Source: Escherichia coli (GTDB taxonomy: Bacteria; Pseudomonadota; Gammaproteobacteria; Enterobacterales; Enterobacteriaceae). Taken from it: 64,000 nt of DNA. A model generated the notes under the pieces. The model was not told the DNA's origin. It saw nothing but the letters and a program-made list of their open reading frames with translations, and did not search any database. Position numbers and translations under genes: made by a program. The stretch lies in assembly GCF_003790525.1 (NCBI RefSeq), contig NZ_CP033635.1. One strand, given 5' to 3'. Positions 1,104 to 6,769 of this stretch are shown piece after piece (position 1 is the stretch's first letter; every line of letters starts with the position of its first letter).

Positions 1104-2144
1104 ATGACTGGTCAGTCTTCATCTCAGGCGGCAACGCCCATTCAGTGGTGGAAACCCGCGCTTTTCTTTCTCGTTGTCATTGCTGGTCTCTGGTATGTGA
1201 AATGGCAACCTTACTACGGCAAAGCGTTTACTGCTGCCGAAACCCACAGTATCGGTAAATCTATCCTTGCGCAGGCGGATGCTAATCCGTGGCAGGCGGC
1301 GTTGGATTACGCGATGATCTATTTCCTCGCGGTATGGAAAGCGGCGGTGCTGGGCGTACTGCTCGGGTCGTTGATTCAGGTGCTGATCCCGCGTGACTGG
1401 TTATTGCGTACGCTTGGGCAATCGCGCTTTCGCGGCACGCTGCTGGGAACGCTGTTTTCGCTGCCGGGCATGATGTGTACCTGCTGTGCGGCTCCGGTCG
1501 CGGCGGGAATGCGTCGCCAACAGGTGTCGATGGGCGGTGCGCTGGCATTCTGGATGGGGAATCCGTTGTTAAACCCGGCGACGCTGGTGTTTATGGGGTT
1601 CGTCCTCGGCTGGGGTTTTGCGGCGATTCGTCTGGTGGCGGGGCTGGTGATGGTGTTGCTGATTGCGACGCTGGTGCAAAAATGGGTGCGTGAAACACCG
1701 CAAACGCAGGCACCGGTCGAAATTGACATACCGGAAGCACAGGGAGGATTTTTTAGCCGCTGGGGCAGGGCGCTATGGACGCTTTTCTGGAGTACAATCC
1801 CGGTTTACATCCTTGCAGTACTGGTGTTGGGTGCCGCTCGCGTCTGGCTATTCCCCCATGCCGATGGTGCTGTCGATAACAGCCTGATGTGGGTGGTGGC
1901 GATGGCGGTGGCAGGATGCTTGTTTGTCATTCCCACGGCAGCAGAAATTCCGATTGTACAAACGATGATACTGGCAGGCATGGGAACCGCTCCGGCGCTG
2001 GCATTGTTGATGACGCTCCCGGCGGTGAGTTTGCCGTCACTGATTATGTTGCGTAAAGCGTTCCCGGCGAAAGCCTTATGGCTGACGGGGGCGATGGTGG
2101 CAGTGTCTGGTGTGATTGTCGGCGGGTTGGCGCTGTTGGCTTGA
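1104..2144 (+). CDS. yraQ: Predicted permease YraQ (346 aa, multi-pass membrane protein)
   Basis: ORF 346 aa, hydrophobic segments throughout, conserved position. Confidence 0.88.
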   Translation: MTGQSSSQAATPIQWWKPALFFLVVIAGLWYVKWQPYYGKAFTAAETHSIGKSILAQADANPWQAALDYAMIYFLAVWKAAVLGVLLGSLIQVLIPRDWLLRTLGQSRFRGTLLGTLFSLPGMMCTCCAAPVAAGMRRQQVSMGGALAFWMGNPLLNPATLVFMGFVLGWGFAAIRLVAGLVMVLLIATLVQKWVRETPQTQAPVEIDIPEAQGGFFSRWGRALWTLFWSTIPVYILAVLVLGAARVWLFPHADGAVDNSLMWVVAMAVAGCLFVIPTAAEIPIVQTMILAGMGTAPALALLMTLPAVSLPSLIMLRKAFPAKALWLTGAMVAVSGVIVGGLALLA

Positions 2145-2157
2145 TTTGAGGGAAAAC

Positions 2158-2250
2158 ATGTCGGATGCGGCGTAAACGCCTTATCCGACCTACGGTTTGC
2201 ATCGTTGTAGGCCTGATAAGACGCTGCAAGCGTCGCATCAGGCATTACAA
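2158..2250. repeat. REP/BIME palindromic element cluster downstream of yraQ and dolP
   Basis: gccggatgcggcgtaaacgccttatccgac... and ...taggcctgataagacgctgcaagcgtcgcatcaggc match the E. coli REP consensus in inverted orientation. Confidence 0.8.
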
Positions 2251-2256
2251 GGGCTG

Positions 2257-2832
2257 CTATTTAATAAACGTAAACGCCGTAGTTACACGCTTTACGCCGC
2301 TCACCCGGCTGGCAATATCTGCCGCCGCTTTCGCTTCACGTTCAGTCACCAGCCCCATCAGGAACACTTCACCGTTTTCGGTGGTCACTTTCACGTTGGA
2401 CGATTTCACCAGGTCGCTGGTTAACAGCTGCGAACGCACTTTGGTGGTGATCCACGTATCGTTAGACGCTTCGCCCAGACCAATCGGCTGGCCCTGACGA
2501 ATCTCGTTATACACTTCGTTGGCACCGTCTACGCCCATCGCAATTTGTTTAGCGCGAGCCGAAAGTTCAGCGTTTGGTGACTGCCCAACCAACAGCACTT
2601 TGCCCTGATACGCCGTGACATTAATACGGGTTTCTTTCTTAATCTGTTCGTCTTTCGACAATGCGCTGTTCACGCGCACTTCCAGGGTACCATCGTCCAC
2701 CTGGGTGCCGACACTGCGTGGGTCAGTTGCGGCTTTGGTACCTACAGCAGCGGTACCCACTACGGCAGCGGCAACACAACCTTGCAACAGCAGCGCGGAA
2801 AGAAGGACTGCGATTGGCGATAATGCCTTCAT
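2257..2832 (-). CDS. dolP: Outer-membrane lipoprotein DolP/YraP with two BON domains (191 aa)
   Basis: MKALSPIAVLLSALLLQGC lipobox signal peptide; length and context match YraP. Confidence 0.93.
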   Translation of the reverse strand: MKALSPIAVLLSALLLQGCVAAAVVGTAAVGTKAATDPRSVGTQVDDGTLEVRVNSALSKDEQIKKETRINVTAYQGKVLLVGQSPNAELSARAKQIAMGVDGANEVYNEIRQGQPIGLGEASNDTWITTKVRSQLLTSDLVKSSNVKVTTENGEVFLMGLVTEREAKAAADIASRVSGVKRVTTAFTFIK

Positions 2833-2841
2833 GTATTCTCC

Positions 2842-3432
2842 TTAAACATCCTGGTGAGGGAAAAGCGTGTTATCGATCAGATCGCACAGGCAATTTACCG
2901 TCAGCATATGCATTTCCTGAATGCGAGCACTACGATGCGAAGGAATGCGGATCTCCACATCCTGTGGCCCTAACAAACCTGCAAGTTCACCGCCGTCATA
3001 GCCGGTTAATGCCACAATGGTCATATCACGCGTAACGGCAGCTTCTACCGCTTTTACAATATCGCGGCTGTTGCCACGGGTGGAAATGGCTAACAATACA
3101 TCTCCCGCATGACCCAGCGCCCGCACCTGTTTTGCATACACTTCATCATGTAAGCGATCGTTGGCAATCGCCGTTAAGACAACATTATCAGTATTTAGTG
3201 CAATGGCAGGTAAGCTGGGCCGCTCCGTTTCGAAACGGTTGATCATGCTGGCAGCAAAATGCTGTGCATTGGCAGCGGAAGTTCCATTACCACAACAGAG
3301 GATTTTGTTGCCATTGAGCAGAGACTGAACCAGCGTCATAGCTGCACGCGAGATGGCATCCGGAAGCGCCTCTGCCGCCGCAATTTGAGTTTGAATGCTT
3401 TCAGTGAAGCAAGCTTTAATTCTTTCTTGCAC
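2842..3432 (-). CDS. diaA: DnaA initiator-associating protein DiaA (SIS-domain, 196 aa)
   Basis: [27 protein letters not shown]...; SIS fold; sits between yraN and dolP. Confidence 0.93.
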
Positions 3433-3451: not shown

Positions 3452-3847
3452 TTATGAGTGGTCATTAAAGGCATCCTTAATCCACTCAACCTCATTCCCG
3501 GTGAAGGCTACCACATCGAACCGGCAATCCACAGTATCAAAACTCCCATTATGACGCGCGAGCCACAAGCGGGCAGTCTGTAATAATTTGTGTTGTTTGC
3601 TGCGGGTCACACTGGCTGCCGCGCCGCCATAAAGCGCAGAGCGGCGGTAACGCACCTCGACAAAAACGGTGGTCCTGCCTTCACGCATTATCAGATCGAT
3701 CTCGCCGCCACGCTCGTTCACGTTAGCGGCGATAAACCGCAGTCCTTTGCCTTCCAGCCAGCGACGCGCTTGTGCTTCCCACGCATCGCCGGTCTGTTTG
3801 GTGGTTAACTGGCGGGGACTACCTGACCTTGTTGGTACTGTAGCCAT
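3452..3847 (-). CDS. yraN: UPF0102 family protein YraN (131 aa)
   Basis: ORF 131 aa, conserved position; 5' end overlaps the lpoA 3' end. Confidence 0.88.
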
Positions 3848-5841
3848 GATAACTTCCTGTTAATCACGCAATCCGGGTTAGCCGTCAGACTTCCGGTATT
3901 ACCGTTGATTTCAAAACCCTGAACCTGGCGCATTTGTGAGAAATGATTTGCCAACGACCAGGCATCGACGCCCATCGCATACATGCGAGCCAGCGAATAA
4001 TCGTTGTTCACCGCGCTGAGCGCCTGCTGCATTAACGGCAGATTACCGCCTGCCAGCATCGGGATTTCGCTGTACTGCAAGCCTTCCATCTCCAGGCGGA
4101 AATCCGGGCCAGCGGTCCCTTGCGCACTGCGGGAGCTGGCGTACAGCGTTGCACCGCTCTGGCTACCGTTACGCATGGCGATCATTGGTTTGATAAAAGC
4201 GATTTCACCCGGCGTTGCCACAATGTACACCGCATCGACACGACCGCCATTATTGGTGAACTGGTCATCGGTTGGCGTGGTTTGCAGCGTTGGATTGTTG
4301 GTCGTCATGCCGGAGTCGGTTGTTTCTCTGGGAGTAATCGGGCTACCCGTTAAAGCAATACCAGAACCGCCGTTAACACCCGCGCGTAATTCGCTGGTGG
4401 AACCAAATTTTTGTTGCAGAACGGTGCCGCCACCCAGTTTCTGCCACTCTTGCGCAAACGCATTGGCTACGCGATCGCCCAATGAACTGCGTGGGATCAG
4501 CACCAGCGGCGCTTGTTTACCCTGGTCACGAATATGACGCGCTGCATCGCGCGCTTCGTCTTCCGGTGAAAGCGCGAAGTAACAAATATTGACGCGGTTT
4601 TCGATATTCTCCGGCTGGTTCAGTGCCAGCACGTTCAGCGGGGTGTTGCTCTTCAGCAACTCTTCAACGTTATTTTTCAGCAACGGACCGACCACAATAC
4701 TCGCACCATCCTGCTGAACCTGGCTTAAGATCTGGCTAAGTGGTTGTGATGAGGTATCGTAGATTTTTAGCTCTGCGGATGGATTTGCGGGTGCGCTTAC
4801 CGCTGCGGTGCTTGTCGCCGGGGCGCTTACAGGCACCGGCTGGGCCGCAGGCTGCTCACCGGTCAGATCGCTAACCGAGGCTTGTGCCGGGCTGGCAACG
4901 CCATCCACGGTTTGCGGCTGAGGTTGTTCTGCTACGTCTGCGGCAGGTGCGGCAGCTACCTGGGCCGCCACTGGCTGAGTGCCGATATTTTTCGCCGCTT
5001 CAAAGCCTTGCTGAATAGTGCGACCAAATACCGCTGCCTGGCCATTCAGTGGCAACAGCAGGGCGATTTTGTTGGTCGATGCGGGTTTAAACGCTTTTAC
5101 GTTAACCAACTGCGTTGGCAGCATTTTCGCGCCCGGGTTGTTCGGATAACGTTTCTGCCAGTCGGCGATCCCGGCTTTCATCATGTCGGGATCGTTACGG
5201 TTATCAAACCAGATGCGCTGCAGATCCAACCAGCCTTGCAGAATATTTTCGTCGGCATTGATCACGAGCGTATTCGCCTGTTCCTGAGTCATGGAGGAGA
5301 GCGCCTGCCAGGTGGCGTCAATATTCTGCTGCTTTTCTTTCGCGCCGAGCAGCGGTTCCTGAGCAATTAACGCGCGCAGTAAATCAATGGAAGGACGCCC
5401 CTGGCTGGCATCGATTTTTGCCTGCCAGTAACGCGCTTGCTGGTTTTGTTCTAAATCGGCAGGTGTGATTTTCGCCAGCAAGTTTTGCGCGCCAGCAAAA
5501 TCTTTCTGCGCCAGTTTAATCTCTGCCGCCAGCAGTGTTTTCTCGCGACGCTGAGAATCGTTCAGTTCTTGCGGTAGTTGGTTAAACAACTCCACCGCCT
5601 GTCCGGTTTTACCTTCTTTCACCAGTGCATGAATGGCGAGTAATTGCCAGTTGATCCTGGTATCATCAGAACTTTGCTGCATCTGTTGCAGGTAAAAGGC
5701 AGAATCAGCCTGCGCCGTGCCCTGCATATAAGCAGTGGACTGATCGGGAGTATGGGTGCCACAACCGGCGAAAATCAGGGCTGCCAGAACAACAGGCAGA
5801 CAACGCGCGGCTTTCAAACGAGAAAATGTTGAGGGTACCAT
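3805..5841 (-). CDS. lpoA: Penicillin-binding protein 1A activator LpoA (outer-membrane lipoprotein, 678 aa)
   Basis: ORF 3805-5871 trimmed to the start [28 protein letters not shown] (lipobox); TPR-like N-terminus, Pro/Ala-rich linker. Confidence 0.92.
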
Positions 5842-5905
5842 AATGTATCCAGTGATATTTTTTTTACGCAATGCTCAATATTAAATCGGCAATACGGACG
5901 ACACA

Positions 5906-6769
5906 ATGAAACAACACCAATCGGCGGATAATTCTCAGGGCCAGCTTTACATTGTACCGACGCCAATCGGCAATCTGGCGGATATCACCCAGCGTGCGTT
6001 GGAGGTATTACAGGCCGTTGATCTGATTGCCGCCGAGGATACGCGTCACACCGGTTTATTGCTGCAACATTTTGGGATTAATGCTCGGTTGTTTGCGCTG
6101 CACGACCATAACGAACAACAAAAAGCCGAAACGCTGCTGGCGAAGCTGCAAGAGGGGCAAAACATTGCGCTGGTTTCCGATGCCGGAACGCCGCTAATTA
6201 ACGATCCTGGCTACCATCTGGTGCGTACCTGCCGTGAAGCGGGGATTCGCGTGGTGCCGCTACCCGGGCCGTGTGCTGCTATCACTGCGTTAAGCGCCGC
6301 GGGTTTACCATCCGATCGTTTTTGTTATGAAGGCTTTTTACCTGCCAAATCAAAAGGCCGCCGTGATGCGCTAAAAGCCATTGAAGCGGAGCCGCGCACG
6401 CTGATTTTTTATGAATCTACCCACCGCCTGTTAGATAGCCTGGAAGATATCGTTGCGGTATTAGGCGAATCCCGCTACGTCGTTCTGGCGCGTGAGCTGA
6501 CCAAAACCTGGGAAACCATTCACGGCGCGCCCGTTGGCGAGCTGCTGGCGTGGGTCAAAGAAGATGAAAACCGTCGCAAAGGCGAAATGGTACTGATTGT
6601 CGAAGGCCATAAAGCACAGGAAGAAGACTTACCCGCCGATGCCCTGCGCACGCTGGCGCTGTTGCAGGCAGAACTGCCACTGAAAAAAGCGGCGGCGCTG
6701 GCAGCAGAAATTCACGGCGTGAAGAAAAATGCGCTGTATAAGTATGCACTGGAGCAGCAGGGAGAGTGA
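5906..6769 (+). CDS. rsmI: 16S rRNA (cytidine1402-2'-O)-methyltransferase RsmI (287 aa)
   Basis: [28 protein letters not shown]...; tetrapyrrole-methylase-like fold; divergent from lpoA. Confidence 0.93.

Follow-up and report, generated by a model that had tools for sequence, protein, structure and literature searches.

The window analysed here is a 64,000-nucleotide stretch of Escherichia coli DNA, in which the genes lpoA, yraN, diaA and dolP follow one another in this order on the minus strand and rsmI diverges from them at position 5906. lpoA opens with an ATG at 5841 and closes with a TAA at 3807-3805, so that its 3' end lies within the 5' end of yraN. The features of the locus are collected in Table 1.

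Table 1. Genes and sequence features at the lpoA-yraN junction (positions in the window)
Feature	Position	Strand	Description and evidence
lpoA CDS	3805..5841	-	678 aa, PBP1A activator lipoprotein; ORF/translation, RefSeq and Pfam LppC
yraN CDS	3452..3847	-	131 aa, UPF0102 / PD-(D/E)XK nuclease family; ORF, RefSeq, PF02021, PDB 3FOV homologue
lpoA-yraN dual-coding overlap	3805..3847	-	43 nt; LpoA residues 665-678 and stop, YraN residues 1-14
yraN start ATG	3845..3847	-	A of LpoA Ser TCA and TG of Trp TGG
yraN Shine-Dalgarno AGGAAG	3853..3858	-	LpoA codons Arg-AGG and Lys-AAG; spacer to ATG 5 nt
yraN-frame TAA	3860..3862	-	Five codons 5' of the ATG (-15), closes the frame; first start after it at 3847 (ORF listing)
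TTAA junction	3805..3808	-	yraN codon 14 (TTA) and lpoA stop (TAA); YraN start position in most other lineages
diaA	2842..3432	-	Next gene after yraN; 19-nt spacer; GTG start
dolP	2257..2832	-	Final gene of the cluster; 9-nt spacer

Around the junction, the LpoA frame reads GTG ATT AAC AGG AAG TTA TCA TGG CTA CAG TAC CAA CAA GGT CAG GTA GTC CCC GCC AGT TAA and the YraN frame reads ATG GCT ACA GTA CCA ACA AGG TCA GGT AGT CCC CGC CAG TTA ACC. More specifically, the yraN frame is displaced by one base in the 5' direction (-1) from that of lpoA, as happens at an ATGA overlap.

The original prediction, made from the letters of the sequence, was that the two genes overlap by 43 bp on the same strand and that this exceeds the usual 1-4 nt. 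Both parts are borne out. The overlap occupies exactly the positions predicted, the RefSeq/PGAP annotation gives the same arrangement in two strains (lpoA 1260..3296 and yraN 3254..3649 in L001; 754 versus 796 in L002), and the pair 'b3147 lpoA / b3148 yraN' is tabulated at a distance of -43 (Huber et al., 2023, Table S2, PMC10666635). Among the 33 co-directional pairs of a 50-kb local sample it is the longest overlap, the second longest being -11. The overlap is already part of the standard annotation and of the literature, and it is ordinary for a tightly packed operon. A 701-nt query spanning it matches E. coli strain AR_0013 with 100% identity and occurs in 5424 of the 5426 complete genomes.

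Two further observations concern the flanks of the cluster. At the 5' side, the program-made lpoA reading frame runs 10 codons further, to a TTG at 5871 (window 5842-5871); the RefSeq start is the ATG at 5841, which yields a lipoprotein signal peptide. At the 3' side, a cluster of REP-type palindromic repeats, such as gtcggatgcggcgtaaacgccttatccgacctac and gtaggcctgataagacgctgcaagcgtcgcatcaggca, lies in the yraQ-dolP interval (2150-2288) and gives three sub-threshold matches to the Rfam family naRNA4 (RF02564), which score 32-38 bits where the gathering threshold is 59.5.

Conservation of the two proteins across the overlap

LpoA matches the Pfam family LppC (PF04348; E = 3.3e-135, 452 bits), with profile positions 250-563 of 563 aligned to residues 350-672 of 678. 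Its tail aligns up to residue 677 of 678 with RDMTWYQYQDGAIVPV, the C-terminal end of H. influenzae LpoA in the crystal structures 3CKM and 5KCN, and this tail, SWL(K/Q)YQQGQ(V/I)VPAS, is nearly invariant across the Enterobacterales sampled. Judged from these alignments, LpoA is not the extended partner.

YraN matches UPF0102 (PF02021; E = 3.6e-25, 88.6 bits against a cut-off of 23.6) over residues 24-114. In a 37-sequence alignment E49, D51, E64 and R68 are invariant and R66 is nearly so. The predicted structural model has a mean pLDDT of 83, with residues 1-10 below 50 and the first helix beginning at residue 16. Taken together, the conservation of both products indicates that both frames code for real conserved proteins, as in a genuine co-directional overlapping pair.

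The 14 YraN residues encoded by the overlap fall outside the Pfam domain and vary among sequences, as in VEPVSPGPDRAGQL. Owing to the one-base offset between the two frames, the third positions of LpoA codons are the first positions of YraN codons, and the variation of the YraN N-terminus is exactly what the synonymous sites of LpoA permit. At +14..+34 the variation of these sites is that of the background (about 1.0 bit), so that no separate constraint is detectable on YraN residues 5-12; just after the ATG, variation is reduced over the first few codons (0.18-0.69 bits). The overlap-encoded residues would then be a disordered, weakly constrained passenger whose sequence is set by the codons of LpoA.

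One strain carries a damaged yraN downstream of an unchanged junction. In E. coli MB06101, a seawater isolate (NZ_CM129890.1, L084:554-868), an in-frame 81-bp deletion removes residues 49-75, including the conserved GEIDLI...EVR nuclease motif, and leaves the 43-nt junction with lpoA intact. As read from the sequence, yraN is probably non-functional in this isolate.

Selection on the yraN start and Shine-Dalgarno sequence within lpoA codons

For comparison, 80 loci containing YraN relatives were collected, and in each the end of lpoA and the possible starts of yraN were located. Both genes are present in 36 unique Enterobacterales sequences, which come from Enterobacteriaceae, Erwinia and Acerihabitans (Pectobacteriaceae) and include the genera Escherichia, Citrobacter, Enterobacter, Kluyvera, Klebsiella, Raoultella, Lelliottia, Atlantibacter, Siccibacter, Erwinia and Acerihabitans.

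The overlap is exactly 43 nt long in all 36 loci. The yraN start occupies one fixed position and exchanges among the canonical start codons (ATG in 32 sequences, GTG in three and TTG in one). In LpoA, the base that opens this codon falls in the third, fourfold-degenerate position of a Ser, Thr or Val codon, a site at which any base would leave LpoA unchanged, and in these 36 sequences it is never C.

A similar pattern is found at the ribosome-binding site. The arginine codon that supplies the core of the Shine-Dalgarno (SD) sequence is AGG in 36 of 36 sequences, compared with 8 of 913 (0.9%) of the other lpoA arginine codons. Over the eight codons before the ATG, the synonymous-codon entropy is 0.46 bits, versus 1.09 bits over 66 conserved upstream codons; a value this low occurs in only about 3e-5 of random draws, and the lowest contiguous eight-codon window upstream has an entropy of 0.81. 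Shared ancestry is not the cause of the low value, since both sets of codons come from one set of sequences with a single tree. The predicted duplex between the yraN SD and the anti-SD has an energy of -4.9 kcal/mol, against -4.3 for lacZ by the same calculation. On this comparative evidence, the SD and start of yraN, which fall in the codons of the conserved LpoA residues Arg-Lys-Leu-Ser-Trp, are under selection at sites that are synonymous for LpoA, and a selected SD suggests that yraN initiates independently.

The junction in other lineages and a probable origin of the overlap

Adjacency of lpoA and yraN is kept outside the 43-nt clade, with junctions that differ. Five loci (L052, L057, L059, L060 and L078) have an ATGA or GTGA overlap of 4 nt and two (L070 and L081) a TAATG overlap of 1 nt; overlaps of 14-23 nt are found in several lineages (14 nt in Nitrosomonas), short gaps occur in others such as Legionella, several of them with an SD-like purine-rich motif 5' of the start, and Morganella has a spacer of 78-79 nt. 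In published data, the LpoA@YraN pair of COGs has a median distance of -4 (q1 -26, q3 +7, n = 262; Huber et al., 2023, PMC10666635).

When the starts of homologues are projected back onto E. coli YraN, the median falls at residue 13, with 12 of 24 loci at residues 13-15 and Morganella at residue 14 exactly; the E. coli N-terminus is about 13 residues longer than in most homologues. The Enterobacterales start would thus sit 13 codons upstream of the position where most other bacteria begin YraN. At that position, a single transition would turn the TTAA formed by yraN codon 14 and the lpoA stop into TTGA, which is a canonical 4-nt overlap, and 43 = 4 + 39 preserves the frame offset of such an overlap.

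We infer that the 43-nt overlap is probably a canonical 4-nt overlap whose start has moved 13 codons upstream. More specifically, the ancestral start at the stop/start junction may have been lost and an in-frame ATG upstream recruited in its place. Such an ATG was provided by the conserved Trp TGG together with the A that ends the codon before it, and the neighbouring Arg-Lys codons could give an SD. Counting against the '4 + 39' origin, the nearest sampled outgroup, Morganella, has a 78-nt spacer and not a 4-nt overlap.

The spacers of Morganella psychrotolerans (L037:2908-2985 and L038:2907-2985) contain a GC-rich hairpin, gggggtgac-agga-ggtcaccccc, followed by a T-rich run; the element is terminator-like in appearance, and the arrangement is the opposite of the Enterobacteriaceae overlap. 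Long overlaps with a different frame offset are found in two metagenome-assembled genomes, a Tolumonas (L040, 47 nt) and a Moraxellaceae (L051, 62 nt), in both around locus positions 2983-3044. The C-terminal LpoA tails of both are Pro/Ala-rich and of low complexity, and their sequence suggests independent 3' extension of lpoA by stop-codon loss, not migration of the yraN start.

Translation of yraN and the question of coupling

The explanation that we favour, and consider likely overall, combines a shifted start, a selected SD, independent initiation and a disordered passenger N-terminus. YraN would most likely be made by ordinary 30S initiation at an internal site on the lpoA-yraN-diaA-dolP message. 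Ribosomes translating lpoA must nevertheless cross this site, and the two translations would be kinetically linked, by unfolding of the RNA and by transient occlusion of the site.

Classical termination-reinitiation would not be the main route to YraN, and we regard it as unlikely at this junction because reinitiation is reported to collapse within about 20-40 nt in native E. coli pairs: a separation of 38 nt, measured for downstream spacers, removes 80-100% of it (Huber et al., 2023, PMC10666635). Efficient reinitiation has been found at stop-start distances of about -8 to +10 nt (Huber et al., 2023), and lpoA-yraN, at -43 nt, lies outside this range.

Translational coupling in a broader sense, which the original prediction had raised, is plausible. 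The RNA around the yraN start is more structured than at most of the 49 annotated starts nearby, with a mean unpaired probability of 0.34 against a median of 0.51 (rank 5 of 49) and a local dG of -13.6 against a median of -7.5 kcal/mol. In this small sample, and with the initiation region lying in GC-richer coding sequence, the modelled pairing is compatible with a contribution from RNA unfolding.

A wider look at the same 49 starts, in the 50 kb of locus L083, gives an observation of its own. In this small sample, the most paired initiation regions look enriched for overlapped downstream genes, namely deaD (-8), yhaV (-1), yraN (-43) and truB (-1). Such an enrichment fits the idea that such genes need upstream translation to open their ribosome-binding sites.

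A conserved RNA structure element at the junction was considered and rejected. The fold of the 141-nt junction is not exceptional (z = -0.75), the sequence is too invariant for covariation to lend any support, and a small hairpin that presents the SD in its loop is broken in Klebsiella and Raoultella. The junction matches no Rfam family, and a consensus scan near 3800-3900 finds neither a σ70-like promoter nor an intrinsic terminator, the totals being no higher than in shuffled sequences.

The main rival to independent initiation, which we think has a modest chance of being right, is that the overlap was selected as a coupling device: a ribosome finishing lpoA would either scan back some 40 nt and reinitiate, or pause at the lpoA stop and thereby open the yraN site, and in either case the output of YraN would follow LpoA translation. 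Precedent exists in the coat-lysis pairs of phages fr and MS2, in which such mechanisms couple translation at distances of -38 and -50 nt. Judged from footprint sizes, a ribosome at the lpoA stop would stand immediately 3' of the yraN site and leave it uncovered, and the start region is relatively structured, as it is in the local overlapped genes deaD, truB and yhaV. The exact length of the overlap is also kept across at least three families, but this is already accounted for by a conserved LpoA tail and a fixed start codon. Furthermore, the loss of reinitiation at 38 nt in native pairs tells against back-scanning, the conserved SD argues for free recruitment of 30S subunits, and the unexceptional fold, with no covariation and a hairpin that is broken in two genera, gives no support to a conserved inhibitory hairpin.

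The functions of the two proteins bear on the same question. LpoA is an outer-membrane (periplasmic) lipoprotein that activates PBP1A, and YraN of Legionella, Acinetobacter and Vibrio is reported to be an ssDNA endonuclease that acts with the ComM helicase on transformation D-loops (bioRxiv 10.1101/2024.02.06.579203). The pair has been scored 'CMPLX not', that is, not a complex (Huber et al., 2023, PMC10666635). Since the proteins occupy different compartments and are scored as a non-complex, matching their amounts is not a plausible purpose of the overlap, and this too weighs against a coupling device.

A related proposal concerns the shift of the start itself. The 13-codon displacement in Enterobacterales could be a selected regulatory design, with the ribosome-binding site buried in the structured, translated end of lpoA, and not the product of neutral start-codon turnover. 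We consider this improbable. If true, it would mean that YraN synthesis depends on, or is throttled by, ribosome traffic on lpoA, and that a DNA-processing enzyme is tied to envelope growth.

Support for the annotated yraN start

In a competing account, the yraN start is mis-annotated, the true start lies downstream of the lpoA stop, and the overlap is a '5'-end extension' artefact. Most long co-directional overlaps in databases belong to this type (Palleja et al., 2008), and E. coli YraN has just the appearance expected of one, in that its N-terminus exceeds that of most homologues by about 13 residues that are unconserved and predicted to be disordered.

The codons available in the yraN frame nevertheless make this account very improbable. 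From the TAA at -15 to codon 43, the E. coli frame contains no ATG, GTG or TTG other than the annotated ATG, and in all 36 Enterobacterales sequences the stretch from codon 2 to the beginning of the domain is free of in-frame canonical starts (ATG, GTG or TTG). The next canonical E. coli start is the GTG at codon 43, which is inside the nuclease domain (Pfam 24-114) and beyond the helix (H16-33) and strand (E37-45) with which the predicted fold begins; initiation there would delete both elements. The case that was named in advance as refuting the overlap, a start at a downstream codon outside lpoA, is thus left without any canonical codon before this GTG. Selection on the annotated start and SD at LpoA-synonymous sites also speaks against mis-annotation, as does the length of the overlap, which at 43 bp is below the 60-bp threshold of Palleja et al. 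(2008), whose downstream alternative start is likewise missing here.

The check suggested with the original prediction, conservation of the yraN start codon, favours the annotated start through its fixed position in the 36 Enterobacterales sequences. Taken together, the fixed position, the exchange among ATG, GTG and TTG, the selected SD and the absence of an alternative start give strong, conservation-based support to the start as annotated.

A start further upstream, which would lengthen the overlap to 67 nt, was also considered and rejected. In E. coli and most other sequences the frame is closed by the TAA, and a TTG or GTG at -24 is in frame in four loci only. In these four (L015, L026, L029 and L039), the LpoA Ile codon at locus position 2977 is ATC and not ATT, which abolishes the in-frame TAA. 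No suitably spaced SD precedes the possible -24 start in any of them.

Lastly, a programmed -1 frameshift within the overlap, making an LpoA-YraN fusion, is hardly credible: a -1 shift would indeed lead from the lpoA frame into that of yraN, with 40 nt of overlap in which to occur, but the lpoA frame contains no X XXY YYZ slippery heptamer from -24 to +40, no significant downstream structure or Rfam match is found, the conserved SD and start codon imply separate initiation, and a secreted lipoprotein fused to a cytoplasmic nuclease makes no topological sense.

Discussion

The analysis indicates that one of the longer co-directional overlaps of E. coli is genuine and not a start-codon error, a result of little import beyond annotation quality. 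To the tabulated overlap it adds support for the start codon, evidence of an SD that a rare lpoA codon maintains, and a probable origin; these additions are tidy but unsurprising. The junction is a clean example of a ribosome-binding site kept in the codons of another gene, with a rare AGG arginine codon that is invariant, as we read it, in order to serve as an SD.

The arrangement also has a practical consequence. Removing the 3' end of lpoA, tagging the LpoA C-terminus or optimising the lpoA codons would eliminate the yraN start and SD, so lpoA knockouts may be polar on yraN, for which a role in processing recombination intermediates is now proposed.

Comparison with known systems

One close likeness is to the canonical overlaps of 4 nt (ATGA) and 1 nt (TAATG), coupled by termination-reinitiation, that Huber et al. 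(2019, 2023) describe. The lpoA-yraN overlap shares their frame offset, with 43 being 4 + 39, and the family as a whole follows them, both in the median of -4 over the 262 LpoA-to-YraN pairs and in the seven sampled loci with ATGA, GTGA or TAATG. Unlike in these overlaps, the E. coli yraN start lies 39 nt further upstream and has a selected SD of its own.

The coat-lysis junctions of phages fr (-38 nt) and MS2 (-50 nt) resemble lpoA-yraN in length and in having a downstream start well before the upstream stop, and in these phages coupling by back-scanning or by RNA unfolding has been demonstrated. Their lysis start is silent without coat translation, however, whereas at lpoA-yraN no conserved inhibitory structure was found and the SD is conserved.

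The 5'-extension mis-annotations catalogued by Palleja et al. (2008) share with yraN a 5' end that is longer than in most orthologues. yraN differs from them in having no downstream alternative start, an overlap below 60 bp, and a conserved start and SD.

As to origin, the locus fits the loss of a start followed by capture of an upstream one, termed '5' elongation of gene 2' by Fonseca et al. (2014): the length of lpoA is kept, yraN has gained an unconserved N-terminal extension, and the old start is now the TTA within TTAA. In the model of those authors 3' elongation of gene 1 is the commoner route to an overlap, and it seems to be the one taken in Tolumonas and the Moraxellaceae genome, but not in E. 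coli.
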